Of a stretch of DNA of 64,000 bases, positions 1-44,641 are shown piece by piece. Source of the stretch: Candidatus Nomurabacteria bacterium (GTDB taxonomy: Bacteria; Patescibacteriota; Minisyncoccia; Phycocordibacterales; UBA9973); assembly GCA_026395995.1 (NCBI GenBank), contig JAPLXQ010000006.1:18983-82982 (forward strand), in the 5' to 3' direction. The stretch's first letter is position 1. Each line of letters begins with the position of its first letter. The position numbers were made by a program, and so were the translations under genes. The notes below the pieces were generated by a model that was not told the origin of the DNA, did no database searches, and saw nothing but the letters and a program-made list of their open reading frames with translations.

Positions 1-789
1 GCTGCAGTGCAGGCGGGAGTACTCCAAGGTGATGTGCGTGATGTTTTGCTCCTCGATGTTATTCCACTTTCACTCGGTATTGAAACACTCGGAGGTGTGG
101 CTACAAAATTAGTTGAAAGAAATACAACTATTCCATCAAGTAAATCACAAACATTTTCTACAGCAGCCGATAATCAGACAAGTGTTGAAATCCATATCGT
201 TCAAGGTGAGAGACCAATGGCTTCAGATAATAAAAGTTTAGGACGATTTATTTTGGACGGAATTCCACCAGCACCACGCGGTATGCCACAAGTTGAAGTT
301 TCTTTCGATGTTGATGCAAACGGAATCTTAAATGTTACAGCAAAAGATAAAGCTTCAGGAAAAACTCAAACAATTAAAATCGAAGCAAGTTCAGGATTGA
401 AAGATGAAGATATAAAGAAGATGCAAGCTGATGCTGAACTCCATGCTGATGAAGATAAACAAAAGAAAGAATTAGCTGAAATAAAAAATTCTTGTGAAAT
501 GACTATTTACTCTGCAGAAAAAGCGCTCAAAGATAATGAAGCAAAAATTCCAGCAGATGTAAAAGATGGAGTGAATGCAAAAATCACAGCACTTCGCGGA
601 TTGAAAGATGGCACAGATTTACCAGCTATTCAAAAAGCTCTCGAAGAACTTTCTACAGAAATGTCCAAGATCGGTGAAGCTATGAGTAAAGCAGGTGCAG
701 AAGCTCCAGCTGGAGGCGCTCCAGAAGAACAAGCCACAGAAGTAAAAGGTGAAGAAGTAAAGCCAGAAGGTGAAGAACCAAAAGCGTAA
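1..789 (+). CDS. dnaK: Molecular chaperone DnaK (Hsp70), C-terminal substrate-binding and lid region; the 5' end lies outside the window
   Basis: Translation of the 7..789 ORF, whose frame is open from base 1, contains canonical Hsp70 substrate-binding-domain segments ([94 protein letters not shown]) and an acidic lid/tail. Confidence 0.92.
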
Positions 790-806
790 TTAAAAAAATA
801 AACAAC

Positions 807-884
807 AAAGAGTTTTTCGAGCTGGTCTGGCGCCGACTGTCCTAAGATAGGAGGCGAGAACCGAGGACCCGAGAAAAACTCTTT
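807..884 (+). other. GC-rich structured element between dnaK and the next gene: an 11-bp perfect inverted repeat (AAAGAGTTTTT / AAAAACTCTTT) enclosing a ~56-nt GC-rich loop with an internal hairpin (TCCTAagaTAGGA), followed by a T-tract. Possible long-stem terminator or small structured RNA
   Basis: Inverted repeat read directly at 807-817 and 874-884. The inner region (gagctggtctggcgccgactgtcctaagataggaggcgagaaccgaggacc) is far more GC-rich than surrounding intergenic DNA. A T-run follows at 881-890. Confidence 0.35.
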
Positions 885-919
885 TTGTTTTATTTTTACA
901 TGTTATAATTAAACCATCT

Positions 920-3019
920 ATGGAACCAACACAATTCCCAGAAAATAAAGATATTACATATTTAGGTGAGACTACTTTTAGAAACAAAAATCAACTTTTT
1001 GGTATTAAAAGAAAAGATCGTCGCCAACATGTCTATGTTCTCGGAAAATCTGGAACAGGTAAATCAGCCTTACTTACAAATATGGTTATGCAAAACATTA
1101 TCAATGGAGATGGTGTTTGTGTTGTCGATCCTCACGGAGAATTGGTTGAAGATATCGTAGCGGCTATTCCTCCACATCGTATGAAAGATGTCGTCTACTT
1201 TAATCCAGCTGATACCGATTATCATATTGGTCTAAATGTACTCGAACTTATTGATCCTCAATACAAGCATCTTGTCGCATCAGGACTGATGGGAATCTTC
1301 ACAAAAATTTGGGCAAATGTTTGGTCTGCTCGTATGGAATACATTTTGAACAATGCAATTTTGGCTTTGCTTGAGACTCCAGGCACGACACTCCTTGGTG
1401 TCACTAGAATGCTCGTAGATAAACCATATAGAAAAACAATTGTTGATAATATCAAAGATCCTATCGTAAAAGGTTTTTGGGTAAATGAATATGACACTTG
1501 GCAAGATAAATTTCGTAATGAAGCTATTACTCCGATTCAAAACAAGGTCGGACAATTTCTTTCTAGCTCTATTGTTCGTAATGTCGTCGGTCAATCAAAA
1601 AGTACAATCAATCTTTTTGAAATAATGAATGAAAGAAAAATTTTCCTTGTAAACGTTTCAAAGGGACGTATCGGTGAAGACAATTCTGCTTTGCTCGGAG
1701 GTATGCTAATTACAAAAATCCAGCTCGCTGCGATGGAGCGTGTTCGTATTCTAGAAGATCAACGTAAAGACTTTTATTTATATGTCGACGAATTCCAAAA
1801 TTTCGTGACAGACTCTTTTGCAAACATTCTTTCTGAAGCTAGAAAATATCGTTTAAATTTGACTGTCGCACACCAATACACTGCTCAGCTCGTATCTGCA
1901 AATGGTTCAGCTGTACGTGATGCTGTTTTCGGTAACGTCGGAACGATGATTGTGTTTCGTGTCGGTGCTGAAGATGCAGACTTTTTGGAAAAAGAATTCG
2001 AACCAGAATTTATGGCACAAGATATTGTGTCTTTACCAAACTATCGAATTTATTTGAAGCTTATGATTGACGGAGTCACATCTCGTCCATTTTCTGCTAA
2101 AACTTTACCACCTATGGTGACAAAGAGAAATTTACAAACAGAACAAGAAGTAATAGATATTTCCAGAAAACTTTATGCTCGACCTAGAGAAATTGTCGAA
2201 GGTGAAATTAGTGAATGGAGTGGAATGTTTTTAAATCTTTCCGCTGCTACAGCACCAAAAGGTGGAAAAGAAATAGAACAATTTCCAGTGAAATGTTCTA
2301 TTTGTGCCAAAGATACTCTTGTACCATTCAAGCCAGAACCAGGACGACCTGTCTATTGTAAAGATTGTATTGCCAAAATGAAAGAAGGTACTTTGAAACC
2401 TTTACCTTTTACAGCACCCAAAATAGTAGAAGAAAAGAAAATTGAAGCTCCTATTCAAAAAACTATAAATGAAGTAAAAATACCTGTAATCACTCCGCCA
2501 ATACCAGCACAAATAGCGTTTAAACCAGCTTATAAAGATCCATTAAGTCCTACACCAGCACCAATTGCACCAAAACCAGCATATCAAGCTACTCAAAACC
2601 AGCCTTTTAAACCAGCTCTACAACAACCAATACAAACTATCCAAAAACCAATACCTCAAAATAATGCCTTGAAAGATGTTTTAGCTAAAGCTATGACTGA
2701 AAAGAAAGTCGAGCAACCAGTACAACCAAAAATATTTATTCCAACAGTTCAACCCACACCAGCACCTGTTTCTTTGGATTCATTAAAGAGTCAGACAAAT
2801 TCTTTACCAAATAATTTTCCAAAAGATAAAGGAGCTAGTAGTGATGATATGAATAAATTTAAAGATTTTATTACTGAAAAAGTATCACAACCACAAACAC
2901 CACCCACCACTCCTCAACAAAAAGAAGAAATAAAAACCTCACCCCAACTCTCTCCTGAAAAGGCGAGGGAGACAGTCAAAGAAGTCCCTGAAGACGTCTT
3001 GCTAAAAATCTTAGAATAA
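920..3019 (+). CDS. P-loop NTPase of the HerA/FtsK/TraD-like (DUF87-type) superfamily with a C-terminal CxxC...CxxC zinc ribbon and a long Pro/Gln-rich low-complexity tail
   Basis: Walker A GKSGTGKS near the N-terminus; Walker B-like hhhhDE ([11 protein letters not shown]). No N-terminal TM helix. C-terminal [32 protein letters not shown] zinc-ribbon motif, then repeats FKPAYKDP / [20 protein letters not shown]. Confidence 0.6.
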
Positions 3020-3033
3020 CTAAAATATACATT

Positions 3034-3681
3034 ATGTCCAAAAATTACTATGAAATACTAGGGGTAAATAAAAGTGCTTCAAAAGACGAGCTGAAAACAG
3101 CTTTTCGTAAATTGGCGCACCAGCACCATCCAGATAAAAATAAAGGAGATGATAAGAAATTCAAAGAAATAAATGAAGCTTATCAAACTCTTTCAGATGA
3201 TACAAAGCGTGCTCAATACGACAGATTCGGTTCTGGGTATCAAAATATGGGAGGTGGTGGCGGACAACAATATCAAGGTGGCTTCGGCGGCGGTTTTGAA
3301 GGTTTCGACTTTTCTGGTTTTCAAGGTGGTGGTGGAGCAGAATTCGACTTGAATGATATTTTCGCAGATTTTTTTGGAGGTGCACGTGGCTACAAACGTA
3401 CACCAAAAGGTAGAGACATGCAGACAGAAATAGAAATATCTATGATAGATGCAATTCTCGGTGCTGAGAGAAAAATAATTATTACCGGCCATAAAGAAAT
3501 AAAAATTTCTATTCCATCAGGAATTCATGATGGTCAAATGTTAAAAATGACAGGTATGGGAGAAGTCATAAAAGATGGAAAATCAGGAGATCTATATATT
3601 AAAGTCTATATAAAAGTACCAACCAAGATATCCAAAAAGGCTCGTGAACTGCTTGAGGAGCTTAAAAAAGAGGGGATTTAA
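3034..3681 (+). CDS. DnaJ-like J-domain co-chaperone, short form: J domain + Gly/Phe-rich linker + a single C-terminal beta-sandwich domain, lacking the CxxCxGxG zinc-finger repeats
   Basis: N-terminal [32 protein letters not shown] with the HPD motif; G/F-rich stretch [29 protein letters not shown]. No cysteine repeats. C-terminal [12 protein letters not shown]...[10 protein letters not shown] resembles DnaJ CTD. Confidence 0.75.
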
Positions 3682-3696
3682 TGCTATAATCAAAAC

Positions 3697-4554
3697 ATGA
3701 AAAAAGGGAGGATATTTTTCTTAATATTTCTATTAGCTTTTTCTTTTAGCGATAGAATTTCATTTGCGCAAAATTCTTCAAATGCAGGATTTATACCTAG
3801 TAATATTTGGTATTCCAAAGATCCTTTTGAGGAAGGAGATAATGTTAAAATTTATACCCTGGTTTTCAATCCTGATTCAAGGCAACTTTCAGGTTCAGTT
3901 TTATTTTTTGACAATGATGTATTACTAGGTAAAAAGACTTTTGTCGCTGGAGCGAGCCAGGTAGCCCAAGTCGGTCTATCTTGGAAAGCTACACTCGGTG
4001 ATCATGTGATTTTTGCTAAAATAGAAAATACTAAATTTTTAACTTCTTCAGGTTCCTCAGTCGATGTTTATTTGGCTGAAAATGAATCTGATAAAAGTAA
4101 ACGTACAGTCAATAAAAAAATACTCAATCAAGTAAACGACAGCATCTCTAATGCTAAAGACACTGCTCAGTCTGTAGCCACATCAGCTGATACACAGGCC
4201 ACTAGTATCGCTAATACAATCAAAGAGAAAACGCCAGATTTTATTGCCAAACCAATTTTGTATGTAGCCAATGGTATAGAATCATTCCGTGAATCGACAG
4301 ATAATAAAATTTCAAATACAAAAGATAAAATAAAAGCTGATATTCAAAAGATAAAAGATAGCGTCAATGGTACTACTGCTAATGCAAAAACTTCTGGTAA
4401 GAATGCATTGAGTAAGCCATTTGAATATGTAAAATTATTCTTTACTGCCATATTGTCTGCTATTTTAGATTTTAAAATATTATTCTATGGGCTTTCTGCT
4501 CTGCTTTTATTTTTTATTTTTAGATTTATTTGGAGGAAAATTTTTGGGAAATAG
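3697..4554 (+). CDS. Hypothetical secreted / membrane-anchored protein (N-terminal signal peptide, C-terminal hydrophobic helix)
   Basis: MKKGRIFFLIFLLAFSFSDRISFAQ signal-like N-terminus; Ser/Thr/Asn/Lys-rich body; C-terminal hydrophobic segment LFFTAILSAILDFKILFYGLSALLLFFIF. Confidence 0.45.
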   Translation: MKKGRIFFLIFLLAFSFSDRISFAQNSSNAGFIPSNIWYSKDPFEEGDNVKIYTLVFNPDSRQLSGSVLFFDNDVLLGKKTFVAGASQVAQVGLSWKATLGDHVIFAKIENTKFLTSSGSSVDVYLAENESDKSKRTVNKKILNQVNDSISNAKDTAQSVATSADTQATSIANTIKEKTPDFIAKPILYVANGIESFRESTDNKISNTKDKIKADIQKIKDSVNGTTANAKTSGKNALSKPFEYVKLFFTAILSAILDFKILFYGLSALLLFFIFRFIWRKIFGK

Positions 4555-4555
4555 T

Positions 4556-4807
4556 ATGAAATTAAGAATTCTTTCATCAATAATACTCTTGTTTTCTATA
4601 CTTTTTCTACCATTTTGGGTGTCTGTAATTTTAGCCTTAATTGGTATGTTTTTATTTTTCTTTTTTTTCGAAGTTGCTATTATAATGTTAATTTCAGATT
4701 TATTTTTTGGTCTGTCCAGTAAAAATATATTTACTACATTCATTATTTTTATTATCCTTTTATTCCTAATTGAATTTTTAAAGAAAAAAATGAAATTTTA
4801 TAAATAA
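4556..4807 (+). CDS. Small polytopic membrane protein (hypothetical); start trimmed to the first ATG after the upstream stop
   Basis: The 4487..4807 ORF overlaps the upstream gene. The internal ATG at 4556 gives MKLRILSSIILLFSILFLPFWVSVILALIGMFLFFFFF..., which is almost entirely hydrophobic. Confidence 0.35.
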   Translation: MKLRILSSIILLFSILFLPFWVSVILALIGMFLFFFFFEVAIIMLISDLFFGLSSKNIFTTFIIFIILLFLIEFLKKKMKFYK

Positions 4808-4810
4808 AAA

Positions 4811-6511
4811 ATGATTAGAAGAATTTTAAAAAACAAAAGAACAAAAAATGCTAACTCATATGTAGACCCAGATGAGATTTTTCTCGATTCTCAAAATATT
4901 GGTAATTTTGATGTTCAACAATTTGAAGGACGTATCGAGCGACCCGTCTCTAAAAAAACAGTATTTTTTCTTGGAACTTTCTTTATTATTTGTGGAATTT
5001 TGTTTTTAAGTCGACTTGGTTTTTTGCAAATTCAAAAAGGTGAAGCCTATTTTCAAAGAAGTGAAAATAATACCTTAGATAAAAAAATCCTATTTGCTGA
5101 TAGAGGTATTATATTTGATCGAAATAAAAAACAATTGGCTTGGAATGTAAAAGATGAGACGGTAGGAGAATTTGCCTCTCGTAAGTATCTAGAAAATGGA
5201 TTTTCTCACATTATCGGATACTTGTCTTATCCAGCCAAAGATAAGGCTGGTAATTATTGGCGAGAAAGTTTTACCGGTAAAGACGGAATAGAAAAACAAT
5301 ATGATGCACGACTCCAAGGTGTGAACGGGGTTAAAATCGTGGAAAACGATGTTCATGGCAAAGTCTATTCTGAAAATGTCGTAAATGCACCAGTCCGAGG
5401 AGCTGATTTAGATTTATCTCTTGATTCACGAATTCAAACAAAATTATTTTCTTCTATCAAAACTTTGTCTGAACAAATTCCTTTCAAAGGTGGAGCGGGG
5501 ATGATTATTGATGTGACTAATGGAGAAATAATTGCGAGTGTTTCTTATCCTGAATATGATTCAGCAATTCTTGCCAGTGGAAAAGATGTCGCTGTTATTA
5601 ATGGATATTTAAATGATAAAAGACAAGTCTTTATGGATAGAACTCTTTCTGGTCTTTATACACCGGGATCTATCGTCAAGCCGATCGTCGCCTTGGGTGC
5701 TTTGCAAGAAAAAGTAATTGATCCATTAACAAAGATTCTTTCCACTGGATCTATTTCAATTCCAAACCCATATGATAAAACAAAAGAGACGGTCTTCAAA
5801 GACTGGCGTGCGCAAGGATGGGTAAATATGCGAGACGCTATTGCCGTATCTTCCGACGTTTATTTTTATGAAATCGGAGGAGGTTTCCAAAGTCAAAAAG
5901 GTCTCGGTATTGCTAATATAGAAAAATATTCAAGAATGTTTGGTATTGGTGAAAAAACTGGAGTAGATATGCCTGATGAAAAAAGCGGAGTCATCCCTAG
6001 TCCAGAATGGAAAGCAATTCATTTTCCGACTGATGCAGCTTGGAGAGTGGGAGATACCTATCACACAGCCATTGGACAGTATGGATACCAAGTCACACCA
6101 ATACAAATGGTTCGAGCGATAGGTGCTGTCGCGAATTATGGAAATCTTGTGACTCCACATTTTTTATTAAATGATAGTCTAAAAAATTCTCAAGTTTCAA
6201 AAATAGATTTGAATCGAGATTATTTTAATGTTGTCCACGAAGGAATGAGGCAAGGAGTACTCGCTGGTACGACTGTCGCCTTGAACGTACCTTATGTACA
6301 AGTCGCTGCAAAGTCTGGTACGGCTCAGCTCGGTGTCGCGAAAAACAAAGTAAACTCTTGGGTGACAGGATTTTTCCCTTATGATCATCCGCATTATGCT
6401 TTTATCGTGATGATGGAAGCTGGACCAAAGACAAATGGAGTGGGAGGTACAGCAGTTATGCGTGAACTCTTGGACTATATGTCCACCGATACCCCTGAGT
6501 ATTTTAAGTAG
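4811..6511 (+). CDS. Penicillin-binding protein 2 / peptidoglycan D,D-transpeptidase (PBP2/FtsI class)
   Basis: N-terminal TM anchor, then transpeptidase motifs: SxxK (GSIVKP), SxN-like (SSDVYFY) and KTG-like (AKSGTAQ). Length 566 aa. Confidence 0.85.
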   Translation: MIRRILKNKRTKNANSYVDPDEIFLDSQNIGNFDVQQFEGRIERPVSKKTVFFLGTFFIICGILFLSRLGFLQIQKGEAYFQRSENNTLDKKILFADRGIIFDRNKKQLAWNVKDETVGEFASRKYLENGFSHIIGYLSYPAKDKAGNYWRESFTGKDGIEKQYDARLQGVNGVKIVENDVHGKVYSENVVNAPVRGADLDLSLDSRIQTKLFSSIKTLSEQIPFKGGAGMIIDVTNGEIIASVSYPEYDSAILASGKDVAVINGYLNDKRQVFMDRTLSGLYTPGSIVKPIVALGALQEKVIDPLTKILSTGSISIPNPYDKTKETVFKDWRAQGWVNMRDAIAVSSDVYFYEIGGGFQSQKGLGIANIEKYSRMFGIGEKTGVDMPDEKSGVIPSPEWKAIHFPTDAAWRVGDTYHTAIGQYGYQVTPIQMVRAIGAVANYGNLVTPHFLLNDSLKNSQVSKIDLNRDYFNVVHEGMRQGVLAGTTVALNVPYVQVAAKSGTAQLGVAKNKVNSWVTGFFPYDHPHYAFIVMMEAGPKTNGVGGTAVMRELLDYMSTDTPEYFK

Positions 6512-6619: not shown

Positions 6620-7096
6620 ATGAAAAAGAGATCTTTTTTAAACAAAGTTGGTGTTTTTTTTGGTGGAATTTTTGCAACCAAAGCGAGTTCGTATAGTTTC
6701 GATTATTTACTTTATCCATTAGCTATCCATTATCTTGGACTAGAATGGGGATTTGTAGTCATGCTGTTACTATCTTTTGTTTTAAATTATCTTTTCATCC
6801 TTCTGTATAATTCAACACAGAGAGATATCTTTGGTTTTGAAAAACTAAAAGAATTAAAAGATAAAACAACAAAAGAAAGTAAATCTTTTATCGCCCGATT
6901 AGTGGGTATGGGTTACGTGATGACTTTCATTGCATTGTCATTCTATGATCCATTCTTTGCAGTATTGTGGTTCCGGAAATCTACCAAGTTTGATAAAATG
7001 ACCAAAAGTGATTGGAAAATCTTAACGATTAGTACAATCATCGGAAATCTTATTTGGGCACCGATGGTATTCGGAGCACTTAAAATCTTCGAATAA
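6620..7096 (+). CDS. Hypothetical integral membrane protein
   Basis: Multiple hydrophobic helices (VGVFFGGIFATKA, FVVMLLLSFVLNYLFILLY, VMTFIALSFYDPFFAVLWF, ILTISTIIGNLIWAPMVFGAL). No recognisable catalytic motif. Confidence 0.4.
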   Translation: MKKRSFLNKVGVFFGGIFATKASSYSFDYLLYPLAIHYLGLEWGFVVMLLLSFVLNYLFILLYNSTQRDIFGFEKLKELKDKTTKESKSFIARLVGMGYVMTFIALSFYDPFFAVLWFRKSTKFDKMTKSDWKILTISTIIGNLIWAPMVFGALKIFE

Positions 7097-7538: not shown

Positions 7539-7568
7539 TTGACACTGTTTATTTTTATATAGTATCAT
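7539..7568 (+). promoter_or_regulatory. Candidate sigma70-type promoter (TTGACA - N18 - TATCAT) upstream of the small-peptide ORF at 7629
   Basis: TTGACA at 7539-7544 and an AT-rich -10 region at 7556-7568, about 60 nt upstream of the ATG. Confidence 0.3.
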
Positions 7569-7628
7569 TATTATGAATAAACTCATGTAGTGTGAGAGTT
7601 CATTAAGTTCATTTAATCTCTAAAAAAG

Positions 7629-7730
7629 ATGAAAAAGAAAATCTTTAAATCCGTAAAGTTATCTGCCCCAAAAATTGCAATTCCTAAATCAGGAAATTGT
7701 GGTGGAAACTCATGTAAATGCAAGCACTGA
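7629..7730 (+). CDS. 33-aa peptide MKKKIFKSVKLSAPKIAIPKSGNCGGNSCKCKH: candidate RiPP precursor (Lys-rich leader plus Gly/Ser/Cys-rich C-terminal core). Absent from the ORF track
   Basis: Hand translation from ATG 7629 to TGA 7728-7730. A candidate promoter lies upstream and a perfect terminator hairpin directly downstream. Core composition (G/N/S/C) is typical of azol(in)e-type precursors. It is about 0.9 kb upstream of the RRE-YcaO gene on the same strand. Confidence 0.4.
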   Translation: MKKKIFKSVKLSAPKIAIPKSGNCGGNSCKCKH

Positions 7731-7750
7731 TTGCACATAATGCATTGTAA

Positions 7751-7782
7751 AATACACCTATAAATTTAGGTGTATTTTTTTT
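7751..7782. terminator. Bidirectional rho-independent terminator (ACACCTA taaattt TAGGTGT + T8) shared by the convergent small peptide (+) and HExxH peptidase (-) genes
   Basis: Hairpin and T-tract read directly at 7754-7782; A-rich on the other side. Confidence 0.7.
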
Positions 7783-8632
7783 ATTTTCTAAAAAAACTAA
7801 ATATTTGTTTCGGATTTATTTTAAAAAGTTCCAGAAGGGTATTTCCTGACCTACTTATAACTTCGTCAATGAGCCAATAACCAAGACTATATCCATACCA
7901 ATTTTGTAGATTTTTTGTTCCAAAAAAATACGAAAGATAGAAATCAATATTACTATCATCAATAAAAAGATTTAAATCTTTTTCAGATATTATATTAAGT
8001 TCTTTGATAGCATCTTCTTTGTTTAAAGTAGTAGACCATGGGGCACGATTACCACCTACAATAAATTCTCTAAAATGCTCAGCCAATCCTTCATTTACCA
8101 TTCCATCTAAAATGGAATTCCATGAATATTGCGATGTATATGCAAGATGAGCATATTCGTGAGGTATAGTTTCCCTTAAGGATACTTGCCATTTCTCATT
8201 TGTTGTATCAATGAGTAAATACATAATATTTCCTTCAACTATAAAACCATTTACCCCATCTAAGTCTTCACTTGCTTCTTTGTTATAAAGCGGAAGTATA
8301 TAAACGTTAATATTTTTTGTAACAGAAACTGCATTAAAAGATTTTTTAATAATAACTTCAACTATTTTTGAAATAGTTTCAATATGTTCAAATATGTTTA
8401 TGTAAAAAGATTGTTCTGATTCACCAAAAATTTTACGACCGAGATCGTTTTTTAACTTCTCTTCGTTTGAATACTCACCAAGACTAAAATTCGGAGTATT
8501 TTTTATTTGTGTAAAAATGTCCTCTAAAGAAGAAGTTTTTGATTCTGAAGAATGAGGTTGTATATAAAAAAAATCTACTTTTACAGATTTTGATAAATAT
8601 TGACTTTTTATTTTTTCATTGTTATTGTTCAT
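7781..8632 (-). CDS. Putative Zn-dependent peptidase (HExxH...E gluzincin-like; DUF2268-like), cytoplasmic
   Basis: IPHEYAHLAY (HExxH) followed by NEGLAEHF, which supplies the third zinc-ligand Glu. 283 aa, no signal peptide. Divergently transcribed from the YcaO gene with only a 32-bp gap. Confidence 0.55.
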   Translation of the reverse strand: MNNNNEKIKSQYLSKSVKVDFFYIQPHSSESKTSSLEDIFTQIKNTPNFSLGEYSNEEKLKNDLGRKIFGESEQSFYINIFEHIETISKIVEVIIKKSFNAVSVTKNINVYILPLYNKEASEDLDGVNGFIVEGNIMYLLIDTTNEKWQVSLRETIPHEYAHLAYTSQYSWNSILDGMVNEGLAEHFREFIVGGNRAPWSTTLNKEDAIKELNIISEKDLNLFIDDSNIDFYLSYFFGTKNLQNWYGYSLGYWLIDEVISRSGNTLLELFKINPKQIFSFFRK

Positions 8633-8664
8633 ATAAATAAAGTGAACCTTAAAAAATATAATCC

Positions 8665-10161
8665 ATGAAAAATAATGAATATTTCCCTCGATTTATCGCC
8701 AAATGGATTAAACATCCTCAAGGCATACAAGTATATGCTCTTAAAGAAAGCATAACACTTGAAGAAATGAATGTACAGGCTATTTCTTCAATAGAAAAAA
8801 TATGTTCAGGTAAGAACAATCTTGATGAAGTGATCCGTAAATTGTCACTTAAATGGGACAAGGATGATATAGTGACATTGATTTATCTTTTCATTGAAAA
8901 GCAAATTATTGTTAATAATAAAGAAGTAAATCCTTTAGTTAAGGGTTGTAAGTTAAAAAAAATAGAGACCCTTTTACCAAACCAAGAAACAGTTGATATT
9001 TTAAATCTACCATATCAAGTTATTTACGGGAGAGCTGGTTCTGATATTTGGTCTTCAGGGAAAGATATAGATATTAATATTGCTACAAATAAAATGATTT
9101 CTGAAATTGCTGAATGGAATGCATGGAATTTTCCAAAAAAAGAATGTACTCTTTTTGGGTCATTTGAAAGTCTTGCTAGTAAAAACATACTAGTACCACC
9201 TAGTGATATTATTAATTATGCTGATTTTCAATATAGTGATATTTTATTTCCTTATAAAATATTCAATCCACTATCAAATTATAATTGGATTTGTGCAAAA
9301 AATTTTATAAATAACGAGAAGGTTTTTATATTCTCTGAACATATTCTTTTTACGCAAAATCCAATATATGTTGCTAATACATCGTCTGGTTGTTCAGCTC
9401 ATGTTAATAAAAATAAAGCTATTCATCATGCTGTGCATGAATTAATCGAAAGAGACGCTTTTATGATTTACTGGTTAAATAAGTTAGATCGACCTAGAAT
9501 TAATTTAAATTCATTACCAGAAAGTATTATATTTCGAGTAAAAAATATTCAAAATCTTGGATACCGTCTTACTATTAATGACATCAGTATGGGGATTGCT
9601 CCAGTTATTATGGTTGCTTTGCAAGATATAGATGGTTGTTATGTAACTTCTGGATTAGCTTCATTGTATGACTTCGAGGCCATGTTTAGCTCTGCATTAT
9701 CAGAAGTCGAGGTTAGTCTACTTCATATTTTGAATAGTAAAAAGATTGTACAAAAAAAATTGAAACCAGAAACAGTGAAATCTCTTGTTCAACATGAAGA
9801 GTTACATCAGCAAATAATGTATCAAAAAGAAACTTCATTCATATTTGAATCAAGTAAAGAAATTTCTTTTAAAAACTTTATGATAGCTTATAAGGATGAA
9901 AAAAATATCATCAAAACGATATTAGACAAAGGTTTTGATTTGTATGTTGTTGATGCAACAGATTGGGAGATTGATGTTTTACTACCAGAACATCGTCATA
10001 TTGTTCGAGCTATTATTCCAGGTCTTGTACCGTTATCTTTTGGTTATCACAAAGAACCATTAGGTATGTCTAGGATTTATGAAGTGCCTGTTCAGTTAGG
10101 TTTTCGTAGTAATACTATCTCGTATCAAGAGCTGAATAGATTTCCTCATCCGTTTAATTAA
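8665..10161 (+). CDS. RRE (PqqD-like) - YcaO fusion protein; predicted ATP-dependent peptide cyclodehydratase/backbone-modifying enzyme of a RiPP-type pathway
   Basis: N-terminal ~100 aa fits the PqqD/RRE pattern (ITLEEMNVQAISSIEKICSGKNNLDEVIRKLSLKWDKDDIVTLIYLFIEKQIIV). YcaO motifs follow: YGRAGSDIWSSGKDIDINIATNKMISEIAEWNAW and SSGCSAHVNKNKAIHHAVHELIERDAF (the ExxER ATP/Mg site). The C-terminus ends ...RFPHPFN, a PxP-type Pro-rich tail like that of azoline-forming YcaOs. Confidence 0.75.
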   Translation: MKNNEYFPRFIAKWIKHPQGIQVYALKESITLEEMNVQAISSIEKICSGKNNLDEVIRKLSLKWDKDDIVTLIYLFIEKQIIVNNKEVNPLVKGCKLKKIETLLPNQETVDILNLPYQVIYGRAGSDIWSSGKDIDINIATNKMISEIAEWNAWNFPKKECTLFGSFESLASKNILVPPSDIINYADFQYSDILFPYKIFNPLSNYNWICAKNFINNEKVFIFSEHILFTQNPIYVANTSSGCSAHVNKNKAIHHAVHELIERDAFMIYWLNKLDRPRINLNSLPESIIFRVKNIQNLGYRLTINDISMGIAPVIMVALQDIDGCYVTSGLASLYDFEAMFSSALSEVEVSLLHILNSKKIVQKKLKPETVKSLVQHEELHQQIMYQKETSFIFESSKEISFKNFMIAYKDEKNIIKTILDKGFDLYVVDATDWEIDVLLPEHRHIVRAIIPGLVPLSFGYHKEPLGMSRIYEVPVQLGFRSNTISYQELNRFPHPFN

Positions 10162-10202: not shown

Positions 10203-11072
10203 TTGCTGATTTTTACAGGGGATTATGATATTATTAATACTATGTCAGAAGAAAATCAGAAAATTTCAATCGGGGATTATGATACTATAATGAATGATAG
10301 AAATATCTTTAATCAGATAGTGTATACACCGCTTTCTGAAGCGCTTAGGCTTCTCGAAGAAAGACAAAAAGATCCAGTATTAATGGCAAAAATTGAAGAA
10401 TTACTTAATGGTGATATTCCAGAAGTTTTGAAACCTATTGGTAAATATGCAGTTCAATTTAGACAAATTGCAACACCCAACAATGAATGTAAGTATTTTC
10501 TAAAGATTTCTAATAATTTCGGCTTAACTCCAACACTCATGGAATACCATAGTGATAAATTTTCTTCTAATAATTTTTTTAAACGTTCCCTAGGTCAATT
10601 ACACATACAAGGACCTATAAATAAAAAAAATGAATACCAGATTGAAAAAATTACCATTATGGATTTTAATAAACATAATGGTAAAAAATTAAATGAAGTT
10701 GTTACCCATTGGAACGAATCAATCATTGATTTCCATAGAAAATTATTTAATATATGTGACTTAAATACTAAAGAATGTAATTTTTATGACACTTCGGAAT
10801 GGATTAATAATCACGGATCTAGTCCAGAGGAATATTATAAACAATTCCTTATTTTATTTGTTTGTCATGGAATTTTATTTGAAAATTTTCTTTTAAACAA
10901 AGAAGAAAGTTCTTTTATTAAAAATGTAATTTTACCAGCATTAGAAGATGTTATAAATTTAACAGGAGTAAAACCACTAATTGTACCCGGTTCTCCTATT
11001 GATATTGAAGATGAAAATTTCTGGGTTCTATATCATCCAAATATTAAGACTATAATTCAAAATGAAAAATAA
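10203..11072 (+). CDS. Hypothetical protein (289 aa) with no recognisable motif; first gene of a tightly packed 4-gene unit with the SET protein, a Cys-rich protein and a histidine kinase. The true start may be the internal MSEENQK
   Basis: ORF only. Overlaps the next gene by 11 nt. Asn/Lys/Ile-rich. No assignable domain by eye. Confidence 0.35.
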   Translation: MLIFTGDYDIINTMSEENQKISIGDYDTIMNDRNIFNQIVYTPLSEALRLLEERQKDPVLMAKIEELLNGDIPEVLKPIGKYAVQFRQIATPNNECKYFLKISNNFGLTPTLMEYHSDKFSSNNFFKRSLGQLHIQGPINKKNEYQIEKITIMDFNKHNGKKLNEVVTHWNESIIDFHRKLFNICDLNTKECNFYDTSEWINNHGSSPEEYYKQFLILFVCHGILFENFLLNKEESSFIKNVILPALEDVINLTGVKPLIVPGSPIDIEDENFWVLYHPNIKTIIQNEK

Positions 11073-11616
11073 AACACCAAAGTTAAAAAAGAAAAGTACA
11101 GGTAAATATGGTAATGGTTTTTACGCTGATGAAGACATAAAAAAGGGGACTATAATCCATATGTTTACAGGGAAAAGAATGGATGTAAAAGAATTAGTTC
11201 AAAAAGTTAATTCTAACAAAGAAAATATTGATGACCCATTTCAAATAGGCAAAAGAACATATATTGACTTAGACGAAGTATCTAGAACATTTAATCATAG
11301 TTGTGACCCTAATTGTGGGATAAGAAAAGTTGGTGAAATGTTTTCCTTAAGAGATATTAAAAAAGGAGAAGAAATTACTTATGATTATTCATTAACTATA
11401 GCACCTACAGAATGGAAAATGAAATGTTTGTGTAAAAGTAAAAATTGTCGTAAAATATTAGGAGATATAAATTCTGTATCAAAAAAACAATTAGATTCTT
11501 ACAAGAAATTTGGAGCTTTGCAAAACTACATGAAGAAACTATTAAAAGAAATAGAAAGTGGTAATTACAAAGTACCAAAATATGAAATTGAAGCTTTAAA
11601 CAGTCTTAAAATATAG
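11062..11616 (+). CDS. SET-domain protein lysine methyltransferase (with post-SET Cys cluster)
   Basis: GNGFYADEDIKKGTII (SET N-region), RTFNHSCDPNCGIR (the canonical NHSCxPN motif), EEITYDYS (ELxF/YDY motif) and post-SET CLCKSKNCRKILG. Confidence 0.8.
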   Translation: MKNKTPKLKKKSTGKYGNGFYADEDIKKGTIIHMFTGKRMDVKELVQKVNSNKENIDDPFQIGKRTYIDLDEVSRTFNHSCDPNCGIRKVGEMFSLRDIKKGEEITYDYSLTIAPTEWKMKCLCKSKNCRKILGDINSVSKKQLDSYKKFGALQNYMKKLLKEIESGNYKVPKYEIEALNSLKI

Positions 11617-11667: not shown

Positions 11668-12024
11668 ATGAAAAAAAATACCAAAGCCATTATTGTAATA
11701 ATCCCGATTTTATTTTTAGTAATATTTAGTTATAGGTATTATCAATATATAATTCAAAAAAACTATATATTAGAAGTTAATACTATTTGTAATTCTGAAA
11801 TAGAAAACTGTTTTGATTCTTCAGATTTAAGTTTTGGTCAAAATCCTTATAAAAAAGTAAGAGTTTTAGATAAATATGCTCCTAAATGTCTCGAAGAACA
11901 TAATTGTGATAGCTTTTATTGTCCTGTTAGCCTAGGTAAAGATAAATGTGAAATTACTTACTGTTCAGATGAAACAAAAGTCGATGGGGAAGGTTGCACA
12001 AATAAAATAATAACTAATCAATAA
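11668..12024 (+). CDS. Small Cys-rich secreted or membrane-anchored protein (10 Cys in the ~85-aa extracytoplasmic part)
   Basis: N-terminal hydrophobic anchor AIIVIIPILFLVIFSY. Then CNSEIENCFDSSD...KCLEEHNCDSFYCPVSLGKDKCEITYCSDETKVDGEGC, consistent with a disulfide-rich fold. Confidence 0.45.
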   Translation: MKKNTKAIIVIIPILFLVIFSYRYYQYIIQKNYILEVNTICNSEIENCFDSSDLSFGQNPYKKVRVLDKYAPKCLEEHNCDSFYCPVSLGKDKCEITYCSDETKVDGEGCTNKIITNQ

Positions 12025-12026
12025 AA

Positions 12027-13757
12027 ATGCTATCTCATTTCATAAATATTCAATATTGTTATACATATCTTATTGACCAGACACCTGTAAGTCTTTTGTT
12101 ATACTCACATATACCTACAGCTATACTTGCTTTATTTTTTGGTATTTTTATTTTTCTAAAAAATAGAAGCCAGCAAGGTTTTGCTCTGTTAATGATTTGT
12201 ATATCTTTTGCTCTTTGGTGTCTTTTTGATCTGAGTTCTTGGTTTTCTTTTATTGGATCTGGGAATACCATGCTTGCATGGTCACTATTAGATTTAATTT
12301 CATTAATTATGTTCTTCTTTTCTTATTACTTTCTATATACTTTTATTACAGAAAAGGATTTTCCTATTTGGCAATGGTTTGTTGGATTTATTTTAATACT
12401 ACCTACGGCCGTTTGGACATTGTTAGGTAAAAATTTACCTAACTATGATTCAAATAACTGTCAAGCAATAGAAAATACTAAAATTACTGGTTACCTATTT
12501 TATATTTTAGGTCTATTTATAATAATTTCTTCTGTATTTTCTATATATCAGTATATGAAAAATAAAGAAAATTTTGAAAAAAGAAAAAAGATTTTACTAG
12601 TTGGGAGCGGTATAATATTATTTTTAATTTTCTTTTTTTCAGCATTATTAGCTGTTAATTTATTAGCAAATAGTGATTCATCTGGATATGTCTATAACTA
12701 TGAAATTTATGGTTTGTTTGGAATGCCGATATTGCTTATATTCTTAGGTTATCTTGTTATAAAATTCAAGGCATTTAATGTAAAACTTATTTCAGCTCAA
12801 GCATTAATATTTGCCTTGATAACTTTGATAGGTTCTCAGTTTTTGTTTATTACAAGTACAGTAAACTTTATATTAAATGGGGTCACATTTATCGGAGTAG
12901 TAATTTTTGGAATTTTCCTTATTGAATCTGTTAAAAAAGAAGTAAGACAAAAAGAATATTTAGAAAAACTAACAATAGAATTAAACGATTCAAAAATGCG
13001 ACTTGAGGATACAAATATCAAGCTTGAAAGTGCAAATGACAAACTTCAATCTCTCGATAAATTAAAGACAGAGTTCCTTTCACTCGCTTCACACCAGCTT
13101 CGTAGTCCTTTGACAGCTATTACAGGCTATACATCGATGCTACTCGATGGATCATTTGGAAAAATGGATGACAAGCAGAAGGAAGCTATTGACCGTGTGT
13201 ATCAATCTAGTCGTCATCTCTCTACTACAGTGGAAGATTTGTTGAACGTGACAAAGATCGAGCAAGGTGGAATGCAATACGTGATGGCAGATTTTGATTT
13301 TGAAAAAGCTGCTCAAGATTTAGCCAAAGATTTATCCGTCACTGCTGAGAAAAAAGGTTTGAAGCTCACTTTCAAGACAGATAAAAAATCTCCATATACA
13401 GTAAAAGGTGATATGGAAAAAATCCGTCAGGTTATTTTGAATTTTATAGATAACTCTATTAAATATACGAAAAAGGGAAGTATTCATGTACTTATATCAA
13501 AAGATGAAGATAAGAAAAAAATTCGTCTTTCTATTACCGATACAGGTATGGGTATGACTCCAGAGATAAAAGCAAAATTATTCCAAAAATTCTCTCGTGC
13601 TGAAGGAGCAAAAATGAATGCTGGAGGTTCTGGTCTCGGTCTCTATCTAGCAAAGAAAATCATTGAAGAAGGGCATCATGGTGCTGTAGGTGTCGATTCT
13701 GATGGTACAGACCTAGGTTCCACCTTCTGGATGGAATTGGATGAGGCTACAAACTAA
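12027..13757 (+). CDS. Sensor histidine kinase with N-terminal multi-pass (7TM-type) membrane domain, HisKA and HATPase_c; no cognate response regulator in the window
   Basis: About 7 hydrophobic helices in the first 300 aa; a coiled-coil linker; the H-box FLSLASHQLRSPLTAITGY; the N-box NFIDNSIKYT; G-boxes DTGMGM and GGSGLGLYLAKKI. Confidence 0.85.
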   Translation: MLSHFINIQYCYTYLIDQTPVSLLLYSHIPTAILALFFGIFIFLKNRSQQGFALLMICISFALWCLFDLSSWFSFIGSGNTMLAWSLLDLISLIMFFFSYYFLYTFITEKDFPIWQWFVGFILILPTAVWTLLGKNLPNYDSNNCQAIENTKITGYLFYILGLFIIISSVFSIYQYMKNKENFEKRKKILLVGSGIILFLIFFFSALLAVNLLANSDSSGYVYNYEIYGLFGMPILLIFLGYLVIKFKAFNVKLISAQALIFALITLIGSQFLFITSTVNFILNGVTFIGVVIFGIFLIESVKKEVRQKEYLEKLTIELNDSKMRLEDTNIKLESANDKLQSLDKLKTEFLSLASHQLRSPLTAITGYTSMLLDGSFGKMDDKQKEAIDRVYQSSRHLSTTVEDLLNVTKIEQGGMQYVMADFDFEKAAQDLAKDLSVTAEKKGLKLTFKTDKKSPYTVKGDMEKIRQVILNFIDNSIKYTKKGSIHVLISKDEDKKKIRLSITDTGMGMTPEIKAKLFQKFSRAEGAKMNAGGSGLGLYLAKKIIEEGHHGAVGVDSDGTDLGSTFWMELDEATN

Positions 13758-39600: not shown

Positions 39601-40059
39601 TTTTCTGTACTTTCTAGTCTTCCATTTATCTGCGATTTTGACTCGAGTGAGGGAGCGGTCGAGCTCGGTCGCGAAGTGTTCGAAGTCTACGACTTCTTTG
39701 TTCTCGGCGAGTTTTTGAAGTTCTAATGATCGAGCTTTTGCTTTCTCGATGGCTTCATCTGTAATTTCAGAAATATGTTCTGCAAAGTCGGCAAGGATAG
39801 CGACTTCGGTTATAGAAGTTTGTGAAGGACCTTCCTTCACAGATTTAACCTCGAGAAATCCGCCTACAACCGCATATGGAATATGCTCGCCATTTGCTAG
39901 GGCTACGATATCGCCAGATTTGAGGCCTGCGATTATCGGCACGTGCTCGGGCAAGACTGTGATCTCCCCTTCCAGTGTGGGCACTGTCACGCTCTCAACA
40001 AGCTCTTCGAGTACGAGCTTTTCTGGGGTGACTATTTTTAGTTTTAATTGTTTTGACAT
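39598..40059 (-). CDS. atpC: F-type ATP synthase epsilon subunit
   Basis: LKLKIVTPEKLVLEELVESVTVPTLEGEITVLPEHVPIIAGLKSGDIV is the canonical epsilon N-domain. It is the last gene of the atp operon. Confidence 0.85.
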   Translation of the reverse strand: MSKQLKLKIVTPEKLVLEELVESVTVPTLEGEITVLPEHVPIIAGLKSGDIVALANGEHIPYAVVGGFLEVKSVKEGPSQTSITEVAILADFAEHISEITDEAIEKAKARSLELQKLAENKEVVDFEHFATELDRSLTRVKIADKWKTRKYRK

Positions 40060-40062
40060 AAT

Positions 40063-40293
40063 TTATTTTAAAAGAAAACCTTTAATATCTTTTTCTTGAG
40101 TTAAAGTAAGATAATATGCAAATGCACAACTTGCTACATTTCTATTATAACCATGTTCGTTGCCATCTTTTACGCAATGCACTACTTTAAAAGTAAGGAA
40201 TAAAATAACTAAAACAATAATTAAAGCAAAGGACAAAAGTAACTTAATCCATAATTTAACTTTTTTTATTTTTTTAATTTCTTGATTTTCCAT
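40063..40293 (-). CDS. Small single-TM protein MENQEIKKIKKVKLW..., inserted between atpD and atpC; paralogue of 42793..43125
   Basis: Shares an identical nine-residue N-terminus (MENQEIKKI) and about 26 identical nucleotides at its 5' end with the ORF at 42793..43125. Confidence 0.45.
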   Translation of the reverse strand: MENQEIKKIKKVKLWIKLLLSFALIIVLVILFLTFKVVHCVKDGNEHGYNRNVASCAFAYYLTLTQEKDIKGFLLK

Positions 40294-40304
40294 AATTTAA
40301 TTAT

Positions 40305-40356
40305 AACGCCCCCTTCCCGCCCGCCATCGCTACGCTCAGGCGTTAGCGGGCGGGCA
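40305..40356. repeat. GC-rich nested hairpin (CCGCCCGC ... GCGGGCGG with inner GCTACGC tcag GCGTTAGC) in the atpD-downstream intergenic region
   Basis: Read directly; a strongly GC-rich island in AT-rich spacer DNA. Confidence 0.4.
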
Positions 40357-40372
40357 TATAAAACTAATAATA

Positions 40373-42783
<2,411 letters not shown>

Positions 42784-42792
42784 AAAAATTAA

Positions 42793-43125
42793 TTACATAA
42801 GTGGTTCAAATGCTATCCAGTGCGGGAAAAAATATCTAAAAATAAAATATAACAAGGGCATCAAAATTACCAAAGTATTAAGAATTTTATATTTTAATAT
42901 AGAACCCCCAATTTCCTTTTTAAAGTAGGATATTTTTTTAAAATCTGCTACACACTTAATTAAAGAGAAATAAGATAATACTAGACCGACAATTACATAC
43001 AATATAACGTTAGCGGAATCGAAGAAATATAAACTTATAACATAATAAATTATCCACGCACAAAGTAAAAATATGAAACTAGCAATCTTATCTTTATATA
43101 TTTTTTTAATTTCTTGATTTTCCAT
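42793..43125 (-). CDS. Small multi-TM membrane protein MENQEIKKIYKDK..., inserted between atpA and atpG; paralogue of 40063..40293
   Basis: Same 5' end (ttatggaaaatcaagaaattaaaaaaat) and N-terminus as the 40063 ORF; three hydrophobic helices. Confidence 0.45.
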   Translation of the reverse strand: MENQEIKKIYKDKIASFIFLLCAWIIYYVISLYFFDSANVILYVIVGLVLSYFSLIKCVADFKKISYFKKEIGGSILKYKILNTLVILMPLLYFIFRYFFPHWIAFEPLM

Positions 43126-43129
43126 AATT

Positions 43130-44641
43130 TTAACTCAAAAATCCTGCTTTGTAATCCCCGATTGCTTGTTTTAATTCTGCTTCGCCGGCATCAGTCCACA
43201 TCTTTGTCTCGCGAATGTCTTTGAGGAATGTCTTTGCATTATTTTCTGCATAGGCGACGAGGCCCGCTTCGAATTCTTTGATCTTTTCGACTGGCACTTC
43301 ATCGATCATGCCTTTCACGAGCGCATAGAGCGTAATGATCTGATGTTCGACGACGACCGGAGAATATTGCGGCTGCTTGAGCATTTCCACTGCTCTCTTT
43401 CCTCTTTCGAGTTGGCGCTTGGTAGCGTCATCGAGGTCGGAACCGAATTGTGAAAAGGCTTCGAGTTCACGGAATTGCGCGAGGTCGAGTTTCAAAGTTC
43501 CAGCGACTTTTTTCATACCTTTGATTTGTGCAGATCCTCCCACACGAGAGACCGAGAATCCGACGTTTACCGCAGGCCGCACGCCTTTGTAGAAGAGATC
43601 AGTTTCGAGGAAGATTTGTCCATCGGTGATGGAGATCACGTTTGTCGGAATGTACGCAGAAATATCTCCAGCTTGAGTTTCGATTATAGGAAGAGCAGTG
43701 ATAGATCCACCTCCGTAATCTTTATTTTTTCGACAAGCACGTTCGAGTAAACGTGAGTGCAAGTAGAAAACGTCTCCAGGGTACGCTTCACGGCCTGGTG
43801 GACGGCGGAGCAAGAGTGAGATTTCACGGTAAGCGACAGCGTGCTTTGAAAGATCATCATAAATAATCAAAACATCTTTTCCTGCATCCATAAAGTGCTC
43901 AGCGATAGCGACACCAGTATAAGGAGCGATGTATGACATAGCTGCAGGTTCTGATGAACCAGCTGAGACGATGATGGTGTAATCCATCGCACCACCTTCG
44001 GCGAGACGAGTTTCTATTTTTCGGAGCTTGGAATCTTTTTGACCGATCGAGACGTAGACACAGATCATGTTTTGACCTTTTTGGTTTAGGATCGCATCGA
44101 TAGCGATAGCGGTCTTACCGGTCTGGCGGTCACCGATGATGAGCTCGCGTTGTCCACGGCCGATAGGAATGAGCGCATCGATAGCCTTGATACCTGTCTG
44201 CACTGGTTGGTCGACTGATTGGCGACTCATGACTCCGGAAGCCACACGCTCCACAGGGTTTGTCTTGTCTGTCTTGATAGCACCTTTGCCGTCGATAGGC
44301 ATACCGAGCGCATTGAGTACGCGGCCGATTTGGAGATCTGAAACAGGAACTTCGAGAATTTTACCAGTAGCTTTCACTTCATCCCCTTCGCGAATCTTAG
44401 AGAAATCACCGAGAACGATAACACCCACAGAATCATCTTCGAGGTTAAGAGCCACACCTTCCACACCGTTTGCAAAAGTGACAATTTCTGAAGCTTTGAT
44501 ATCGGAAAGGCCTGAGACTTTCGCGATACCGTCGAAAACTTCCACTACGTGGCCGATCTTTTCTGACTTCACTTCCGCCTTGAAATTCTCGATTTCTTTT
44601 CGGAGATTTTCTACTATTTGATTGTGATTTTTTGTTGTCAT
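43130..44641 (-). CDS. atpA: F-type ATP synthase alpha subunit
   Basis: Walker A GDRQTGKT and a canonical F1-alpha sequence throughout ([14 protein letters not shown]..., [19 protein letters not shown]). Confidence 0.95.

Follow-up and report, generated by a model that had tools for sequence, protein, structure and literature searches.

We analysed a 64,000-nucleotide stretch of DNA from Candidatus Nomurabacteria bacterium (assembly GCA_026395995.1, contig JAPLXQ010000006.1, positions 18,983 to 82,982 of the forward strand; hereafter, the window), in which a gene for a SET-domain methyltransferase lies next to genes for an uncharacterised protein, a Cys-rich protein and a sensor kinase. Comparison with related loci indicates that this SET protein is the best-conserved component of a chromosomal gene module which is widespread in Patescibacteria (the Candidate Phyla Radiation, CPR). 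The genes of the module in the window, and a YcaO gene that lies among them, are as follows.

6620..7096, plus strand: TM158, a protein of 158 amino acids with about four transmembrane (TM) segments (phmmer and hidden Markov model (HMM) matches)
8665-10161, plus strand: YcaO protein, 498 amino acids (Pfam, open reading frame (ORF))
10242..11072, plus strand: protein X, uncharacterised, 276 amino acids from the ATG at 10242 (NCBI start) or 289 amino acids from the TTG at 10203
11062..11616, plus strand: SET-domain methyltransferase, 184 amino acids (ATG-to-stop ORF)
11668..12024, plus strand: CRP, a Cys-rich protein of 118 amino acids with an N-terminal TM anchor and an 8-Cys C-terminal domain, presumably extracytoplasmic
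12027..13757, plus strand: sensor histidine kinase (HK), 576 amino acids, with an N-terminal sensor domain of about nine TM segments followed by HisKA and HATPase_c (Pfam, TM scan)

An earlier note on this DNA had described the layout as YcaO, an unknown protein of 289 amino acids (our X), SET, a Cys-rich protein and a sensor kinase, and this layout is correct, with SET co-oriented and tightly packed with X, CRP and the kinase. The stop codon of X and the start of SET overlap by 11 nt, so that the two are translationally coupled, and the CRP stop codon lies 2 nt ahead of the kinase start. A terminator scan from the YcaO stop (10161) to the kinase stop gave no terminator-like site, and the sole such site in the span from YcaO to the kinase was a weak 5-bp stem within the YcaO ORF (9590-9603). 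The promoter scan was uninformative in the AT-rich DNA of the window (G+C 33%), with fewer matches than in shuffled sequence.

The 184-residue protein matched the entire Pfam SET profile (PF00856, profile positions 1-105 of 105) with E = 1.7e-15 and a score of 57.8 bits, the cutoff being 22.4, and no other Pfam domain exceeded its curated cutoff, nor were ankyrin repeats or accessory domains of the nuclear localisation signal (NLS) type seen. The protein consists of a SET core (about residues 8-112), a post-SET zinc motif (122-129) and a C-terminal extension (141-180). The GxG motif (G17-N-G19) is legible in the DNA of the gene, as are the further motifs listed here.

11293..11313, plus strand: NHSCDPN, the pseudoknot and S-adenosylmethionine (SAM)-binding motif, residues 78-84 (read in the sequence)
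11368..11388, plus strand: EEITYDY, the equivalent of ELxF/YDY, residues 103-109, with the catalytic Tyr109 (read in the sequence)
11425..11448, plus strand: post-SET CxCx4C, C122-L-C124-KSKN-C129 (read in the sequence)
11482..11613, plus strand: conserved C-terminal helical extension (alignment and model)

With the preceding residue the pseudoknot motif reads FNHSCDPN (residues 77-84, nt 11290-11313), and its C81 is the fourth ligand of the post-SET zinc site. In an alignment of 46 homologues, with a mean column identity of 64%, N78, H79, C81, P83, T106, Y109, C122, C124 and C129 were invariant, and so was an acidic patch (E54/D57/D58) in the SET-I insert. In a phmmer search of the PDB, the SET and post-SET parts of NSD2, SETD2, ASH1L and MLL aligned in register, motif by motif, with residues 3-142 (E from 1e-12 to 1e-9, and from 1e-12 to 1e-11 for NSD2 and SETD2). 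An AlphaFold2 model made with the 46 homologues (pLDDT 91.2, pTM 0.85; structural statements are from predicted models throughout) was matched by Foldseek to ASH1L, MLL and SETD2 with a probability of 1.0, a TM-score of about 0.6 and 26-30% identity over about 140 aligned columns. The three-helix extension at residues 141-180 is family-specific, has no counterpart among solved SET structures and contains the invariant residues G151, Q154, Y156, Y169, P172, Y174 and E175; at full length it occurs mainly in SET proteins adjoining X, with the exception of one locus (L008; loci fetched for comparison are given by such numbers). The Pfam match, the motifs, the invariance among the 46 homologues and the model bear out the description in the earlier note of a canonical SET protein with all hallmarks, and show an enzyme that is complete, has a post-SET zinc site and is presumably active. 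The gene itself is not new and is already annotated as a family member; the identical protein is present in NCBI as "SET domain-containing protein-lysine N-methyltransferase" from a Candidatus Nomurabacteria metagenome-assembled genome (MAG), on a contig of 89.5 kb. The SET fold alone is no guarantee of a lysine substrate, as the enzyme BurB illustrates (PMC12542666).

For the genes around SET, we made HMMs of X, the N-terminal domain of the kinase and two further proteins, each from few sequences, and ran them on the stop-to-stop ORFs of the fetched loci (more than 100); all neighbourhood counts below are raw counts in which shared ancestry is not corrected. Three distant metagenome loci had a common order, namely an unknown protein of 253-274 amino acids, SET, an optional small protein and a kinase of 540-575 amino acids. 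The proteins preceding SET in these loci were homologous to X (34-40% identity, 39 invariant columns), and the entire polytopic N-terminal domain of the kinase was common to the window and the three loci. Overall, a homologous kinase adjoins SET in about 27 loci (20 of the 80 GTDB loci and each of the 8 distinct loci from metagenomes); the window kinase itself matched the sensor-domain HMM with E = 2.8e-134, its sequence being one of the four seeds. X adjoins SET in 20 loci, homologues of CRP lie within the module at variable positions in at least 18, and TM158 matches were found in 17 X-containing loci, usually adjoining CRP, X or SET. X, CRP and the kinase, whose genes the earlier note had described as operonic with SET, are therefore conserved with it in evolution. 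No Pfam family reached its threshold for the kinase sensor domain, CRP or TM158; the TM158 homologue of L010 gave a weak VTT/DedA-like Pfam match below the cutoff (E = 2.6e-4). Among the lysines of the kinase some are invariant, such as K303 just past the last TM helix.

Two types of module were distinguished. Type A (the window and L001, L003, L004, L007, L009, L011-L014, L017, L084 and L105-L108) has TM158, CRP, X, SET and the kinase; the membership is kept and the order is shuffled, with CRP before X or after SET, TM158 on either side, and SET after the kinase in L106. In type B (L030, L036, L048-L050, L054, L058, L059, L066, L070 and L081, from Moraniibacteria and other Parcubacteria), which is without X and TM158, a SET protein 31-39% identical to that of the window is joined directly to the homologous kinase; CRP is frequently present as well. 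In 55 of the 80 GTDB loci, essentially non-CPR, SET had no module gene beside it. Identities to the window proteins within type A were 45-68% for SET, 31-42% for X, 28-53% for the kinase and 24-50% for TM158; SET, being better conserved than its neighbours, is under unusually strong constraint, and the cassette was not recently transferred. Two loci with 59-62% G+C (L006 and L010), labelled Verrucomicrobia, carry a compact X-SET-TM158 operon without the kinase, and their SET proteins are 57-64% identical to the one encoded in the 33%-G+C window. Either the triad exists outside CPR or these contigs are mis-binned, the taxonomic labels of MAGs being those of the depositors. With CheY, PhoB and Spo0F as queries, no response regulator was found in the 64-kb window, and one follows the module kinase in three loci only (L049 7197-8078, L050 8788-9654 and L084 9293-10120).

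Protein X is called hypothetical in every source and gave no Pfam or NCBIfam match, either alone or across 46 members; an exhaustive profile search showed that the family comprises 926 clusters at 50% identity. Its AlphaFold model (pLDDT 92.1, pTM 0.89) has a parallel alpha/beta core, and the invariant polar residues N80, E101, D105, N111, K114, H165 and N215 appear to lie mostly just after predicted strands, a position at which Rossmann-like proteins bind their ligands. The fusions of X are informative. X::SET fusions were found as four cluster representatives with the Pfam SET domain in the C-terminal half, one of which (P0373) is present on six contigs in a CRP-X::SET-HK context (L108). In P0273 and P0296 an N-terminal GNAT acetyltransferase is fused to X, and in P0272 and P0362 an unrelated N-terminal multi-TM domain of about 200 amino acids; X thus serves as a partner to amine-modifying transferases of two kinds and works at the membrane. 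The multi-TM domains of P0272 and P0362 were also tested as homologues of TM158 and were not homologous. X was further seen with a Cys-rich domain fused at its C-terminal end (P0356).

Small-molecule enzymes occupy the position of X in type B modules. In L050 the order is an EamA transporter, a SpeD-like gene (AdoMet_dc, 2.8e-26), a homologue of deoxyhypusine synthase (DHS; DS, 9.8e-98), SET, the kinase and a REC-REC protein, with the polyamine genes (2427-5528) directly upstream of SET-HK. The series in L066 is a SpeD::spermidine-synthase fusion, another spermidine-synthase-like gene, a PurD-like ATP-grasp gene, a TM protein of 257 amino acids, SET and the kinase, and here too the polyamine genes (572-5483) are directly upstream of SET-HK. 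Such a divergent PurD-like ATP-grasp, which matched solved PurD structures with an E value of 4e-22 only, stands beside SET in six loci (L048, L049, L066, L070/71 and L081). In L080 an ORF of 301 amino acids (4298-5203), located between pheS and pheT of a Patescibacteria MAG, joins a divergent N-terminal SpeD-like domain (8.1e-13) to a C-terminal SET with post-SET (4.7e-16). A SpeD-like gene lies directly upstream of TM158 in the type A locus L014, a SpeD::SpeE fusion gene precedes the GNAT::X fusion P0273 by two genes, and a DHS homologue is convergent to SET in L056, a Leptospirales genome. Four SpeD neighbours and one fusion compare with far fewer than one expected by chance in about 45 CPR loci with windows of about 10 genes, a rough estimate of our own without correction for phylogeny. 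In putrescine, spermidine and homospermidine the terminal amine and its aminobutyl or aminopropyl chain resemble the lysine side chain, and GNATs are the classical polyamine acetyltransferases. A SpeD homologue together with the DHS homologue SpeY forms an established homospermidine pathway that is common in CPR, a group in which genes for SpeD-derived decarboxylases are readily spread (PMC10407285). BurB is proof that free amino acids can be substrates of a SET methyltransferase (PMC12542666).

The SET family is larger than the earlier note assumed when it called bacterial SET proteins rare and mostly effectors. A word-indexed search gave 498 clusters (90% identity) with E values of 1e-3 or lower to the window protein; the best 120 of these were all 167-285 amino acids long (118 of them 167-212) and 56-74% identical, with at least 90% query coverage in 119 of the 120. 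In a scan of one genome per GTDB species, relatives were found in 368 genomes. The closest (46% identity or more) are Paceibacteria-type Patescibacteria MAGs and a few high-GC MAGs labelled Verrucomicrobia (loci of 59-62% G+C), and at 30-40% identity relatives occur in many genomes of Methanoregula, Spirochaetia, Acidobacteriota, Anaerolineae, Myxococcota and DPANN. Patescibacteria MAGs from groundwater and lakes carry the family widely, and relatives are found in free-living archaea and bacteria; at the superfamily level, this is the outcome that the earlier note had named as refuting its reading. This is consistent with the published occurrence of SET genes in free-living or environmental bacteria and methanogens (PMC3980110). 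A scan of IMG/VR gave distant relatives only (29-40% identity, mostly on contigs of 40-480 kb) and no member of the close family. Against NF043024, the NCBIfam equivalog model of LegAS4, the window protein scored 23.9 bits, with a cutoff of 550 bits. A TM and signal scan detected no Sec-type hydrophobic N-terminus, signal peptide or TM segment in the SET protein, type III and type IV secretion signals being outside the scan. Duplications of SET were also seen: L027 has a tandem SET-SET fusion ORF (3917-5134) followed by X, and a second SET gene adjoins the first in L065 (4947-6033), L036 (4530-5522) and L014 (7234-7953, minus strand).

The gap of about 3.1 kb between TM158 and X in the window holds a self-contained cassette, which includes, in addition to the YcaO gene, the following features.

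7539-7568: promoter-like site TTGACA-18-TATCAT, 11/12 sigma70-like, the best of the region
7629-7730: ORF of 33 amino acids, MKKKIFKSVKLSAPKIAIPKSGNCGGNSCKCKH, Cys/Lys-rich, a precursor-like candidate
7749-7778: terminator hairpin after the 33-residue ORF
7781-8632, minus strand: DUF2268 zinc protease

The YcaO protein is of the SagD type and scored 157 bits, against the 219-bit cutoff of TIGR03604; no dehydrogenase or separate E1-like partner was seen in the cassette (7539-10161). The cassette resembles a small peptide cluster of the thiazole/oxazole type inserted into the module. It sits between two conserved module genes, and in the scan of about 40 related loci YcaO was present in no other fetched SET locus and DUF2268 in one (L014). 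YcaO is therefore a lineage-specific insertion, not a partner of the module, and we rejected the reading in which SET belongs to a YcaO system for a ribosomally synthesised and post-translationally modified peptide (RiPP). Other loci hold different peptide-related genes at this place: an M16 peptidase in or beside the slot in L003 and L105 and near it in L011 and L048; in L004 (3484-5199) an ATP-grasp protein with weak MvdD/RimK-like Pfam matches, followed by an acidic 43-residue ORF (4512-4643) and a DUF6624 protein; in L011 (3623-4579, minus strand) a protein that is ATP-grasp-like by inspection of the sequence, with no Pfam match at 1e-3; and in L007 an S9-type peptidase, also judged from the sequence. 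No peptide-maturation gene was seen in the modules of L001, L009, L013, L107 and L010. We regard the peptide-related genes in the TM158-X slot as an unexplained tendency and not as evidence that SET tailors peptides. Of the earlier suggestion of a tailoring enzyme acting on a peptide lysine, the link to YcaO thus fails, and the broader idea of an amine outside histones fits the polyamine, ATP-grasp, GNAT and peptidase neighbours.

The region around the module is ordinary chromosome, with genes for DnaJ, PBP2, CysRS, CorA, ribosomal protein L21, RecR and DnaB, an ABC transporter, an AsnRS/AspRS-type synthetase and F-type ATP synthase subunits. Because the downstream series CysS-CorA-L21-RecR is shared with L003, and the flanks with DnaJ upstream and tRNA-synthetase genes downstream with L105 and L106, the module is a stable chromosomal feature, not the accessory element it had been taken for. 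About 8 kb upstream of SET and upstream of DnaJ, the window also encodes a VirD4/TrwB/TraG-like type IV coupling ATPase of 699 amino acids with a treble-clef zinc finger (920-3019), which was not seen near SET at other loci. A rise in G+C to 0.42-0.46 (against about 0.32) at 40001-44000 coincides with the genes for the F-type ATP synthase alpha and beta subunits (40373-41743 and 43130-44641, minus strand), which fits highly conserved genes better than foreign DNA.

We consider it quite probable that the SET protein is intact and cytoplasmic, serves the bacterium itself and works with X in a membrane-linked sensor-kinase module, and that it is neither a host effector nor a tailoring enzyme for a YcaO product. 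As to the substrate, we tentatively prefer a reading to which we give somewhat less than an even chance, that the X-SET pair N-methylates a small molecule at an amine on a lysine-like aminoalkyl chain. The molecule would be of the polyamine type or derived from lysine, and possibly a conjugate made or held by X. X would bind or make a substrate bearing a lysine-like primary amine, most likely a polyamine-type or lysine-derived small molecule or conjugate. Its aminoalkyl chain would enter the lysine channel of SET, and the amine would be methylated with SAM by means of Tyr109 and the NHSC pseudoknot, with the post-SET zinc cluster closing the site; TM158 or the EamA-type membrane proteins would then handle or export the product. 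The SpeD-like::SET and GNAT::X fusions and the polyamine and ligase genes in the X slot suggest such a small molecule. The X-SET complex, the identity of the substrate, and the roles in export and sensing are what we infer from these data.

Several points weigh against this reading, and we regard the methylation of an endogenous protein lysine as nearly as likely. To our knowledge, nearly all characterised SET enzymes methylate protein lysines. The window protein keeps the post-SET and SET-I elements that form the peptide groove in histone lysine methyltransferases (KMTs), and in sequence and fold it is closest to protein KMTs (NSD, SETD2, ASH1L and MLL). SpeD, SpeE and DHS homologues are absent from the 64-kb window, so that the polyamine link would hold for this genome by family association only; no more than 4-5 of the roughly 45 CPR loci contain polyamine genes, and several of the PurD-like cases may be one inherited synteny, not independent events. 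That the kinase, with CRP, would monitor the product or the state of the envelope is pure conjecture, and the adjacent response regulators of L049, L050 and L084 are REC-REC proteins with no recognisable output domain. The protein substrate could be a conserved cellular protein (an EF-P-type translation factor, a ribosomal or a nucleoid protein) or a component of the module, such as the juxtamembrane region of the kinase or X, whose methylation would tune signalling or physiology; on the same tentative footing, the polyamine and ligase genes nearby would have a theme in common with SET or act on the same protein lysine through deoxyhypusine-type chemistry. A conserved macromolecular substrate would fit the conservation of SET, which is far above that of its neighbours, and the invariant acidic patch in SET-I; invariant kinase lysines such as K303 are available, the lysine-modifying DHS family adjoins SET in L050 and L056, and there is a precedent in Go1-SET, which methylates MC1-alpha (PMC3980110). 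However, no candidate substrate gene is consistently adjacent to SET, small-molecule enzymes and transporters (SpeD, SpeE, DHS/SpeY, the PurD-like ATP-grasp, EamA and the GNAT fusions) dominate the neighbourhood, and with a protein substrate the SpeD-like::SET fusion would be hard to explain.

The remaining explanations appear much less likely. It is improbable that SET has no functional link to its neighbours and is a stand-alone housekeeping methyltransferase surrounded by inherited synteny, as might be expected in small, gene-dense genomes. Gene order is conserved in the compact genomes of CPR, housekeeping genes flank the module in the window, L105 and L106, and the 55 of 80 GTDB loci without a module gene are mostly non-CPR; nevertheless, the gene order is shuffled between lineages while the membership is kept, X::SET and SpeD-like::SET fusions exist, the module is retained at SET identities down to 31-39%, and start and stop codons overlap. 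RiPP-type tailoring, in which SET would methylate a lysine of a ribosomal peptide, in the window the YcaO product of the 33-residue peptide (7629-7730), we judge quite improbable. The compact YcaO cassette directly upstream, the Cys/Lys-rich ORF with its promoter-like site and terminator, and the peptide-processing genes in the same slot of L003, L105, L004, L011 and L007 would speak for it, whereas YcaO occurs in no other SET locus scanned, many modules (L001, L009, L013, L107 and L010) are without a peptide-maturation gene, and the cassettes differ in chemistry, so that a nearly constant SET cannot be tailored to any one of them. Hardly credible, finally, is the effector proposed in the earlier note, which an episymbiont would secrete to methylate histones or other proteins of its host. 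In its favour, the DNA is from a CPR bacterium, a group in which an episymbiotic lifestyle is known, and a coupling ATPase is encoded at 920-3019. SET effectors are also known in Legionella and Chlamydia (PMC3980110). The effector reading was nonetheless rejected: neither a Sec-type signal peptide nor a TM segment was detected, ankyrin and NLS-type domains are absent, the score is far below the LegAS4 cutoff, no member of the close family was found on the viral contigs of IMG/VR, and the coupling ATPase was not seen at the other loci. The conserved partners are cytoplasmic, membrane and signalling proteins of the bacterium, with X sometimes fused to SET, and the X-SET-TM158 cassette is also present in the high-GC Verrucomicrobia-labelled MAGs (L006 and L010). 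Known CPR hosts are prokaryotes, mostly without histones.

SET domains are known from textbooks as chromatin enzymes, and their role in histone-free bacteria is a long-standing puzzle. Here one SET orthologue is kept at about 60-70% identity in hundreds of CPR genomes, tied to a sensor kinase and an uncharacterised partner and sometimes fused to this partner or to a polyamine-pathway domain, which offers a concrete, testable hypothesis on the native function of a bacterial SET protein, acting on polyamine-like amines or on a conserved endogenous protein under two-component control. Three families without annotation (X, TM158 and the Cys-rich anchor) are also defined here, together with a new kinase sensor domain, in organisms about whose signalling and metabolism very little is known. 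A small amine as substrate would extend the chemistry known for the SET fold. A bolder and, we think, rather unlikely generalisation is that the SET proteins of Patescibacteria, and sporadically of other phyla, are not protein methyltransferases at all and that with X, or with PurD-like, SpeD, SpeE or SpeY proteins, they build an N-methylated polyamine or lysine-derived metabolite which is exported by the small membrane proteins and sensed by the kinase with its 8-Cys co-receptor. If this is true, ultra-small bacteria would have a new circuit for small-molecule signalling or for modification of the envelope, and BurB would no longer be the only SET protein with chemistry on free metabolites. 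In the literature on SET together with CPR or Patescibacteria, histidine kinases or polyamines, we did not find the module described. Apparently undescribed are the coupling of a SET orthologue to the polytopic kinase, the Cys-rich anchored protein, TM158 and X, the X::SET, GNAT::X and SpeD-like::SET fusions, and the substitution of polyamine enzymes in the sister modules.

Among known systems, the eukaryotic enzymes NSD1/2, SETD2, ASH1L and MLL1-4 are the best sequence and fold matches and share with the window protein the GxG, NHSCxPN, ELxF/YDY and post-SET CxCx4C motifs. In contrast to them, the window protein is without AWS/pre-SET or reader domains, has only 184 amino acids and possesses its own three-helix C-terminal extension; it is found in a bacterium with a histidine kinase, membrane proteins and X as partners, and histone substrates are implausible. 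Methanosarcina Go1-SET, which acts on MC1-alpha, and the chlamydial SET protein, which acts on histone-like proteins, are, like the window protein, single-domain SET proteins of about 150-200 amino acids; their targets are in their own cell (PMC3980110), as is probably the case for the window protein. They differ from it in that no chromatin-protein gene is linked to the window family, which is coupled to X, TM158, CRP and the kinase, and such coupling was not found reported in the literature on enzymes of the Go1-SET and chlamydial type. LegAS4/RomA of Legionella and NUE of Chlamydia are likewise bacterial proteins with a SET catalytic domain, whereas the window protein has neither ankyrin repeats nor a Sec-type secretion signal and stands in a different genomic context.

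The small bacterial SET protein BurB of Burkholderia thailandensis (172 amino acids, PDB 9l4t) matched the window protein with E = 4.8e-7. It is a SET-domain methionine S-methyltransferase in a biosynthetic gene cluster and acts on a free small molecule (PMC12542666). The match covers residues 60-133 of the SET core only and is weaker than those to histone KMTs; BurB methylates sulfur, not an amine, whereas the window protein keeps the lysine-KMT motifs and the post-SET region. Compared with the BurB cluster, the module of the window holds only the uncharacterised X, and its sister modules hold SpeD, SpeE, DHS, the PurD-like ATP-grasp and EamA. The published SpeD and SpeY homospermidine clusters (PMC10407285) differ in that no SET gene or linked sensor kinase was described there, and the window locus is itself without polyamine genes; they are resembled by the sister loci, in which the AdoMet_dc and DS pair stands directly upstream of SET-HK (L050) and SpeD::SpeE fusions lie beside SET-HK (L066) and near GNAT::X.

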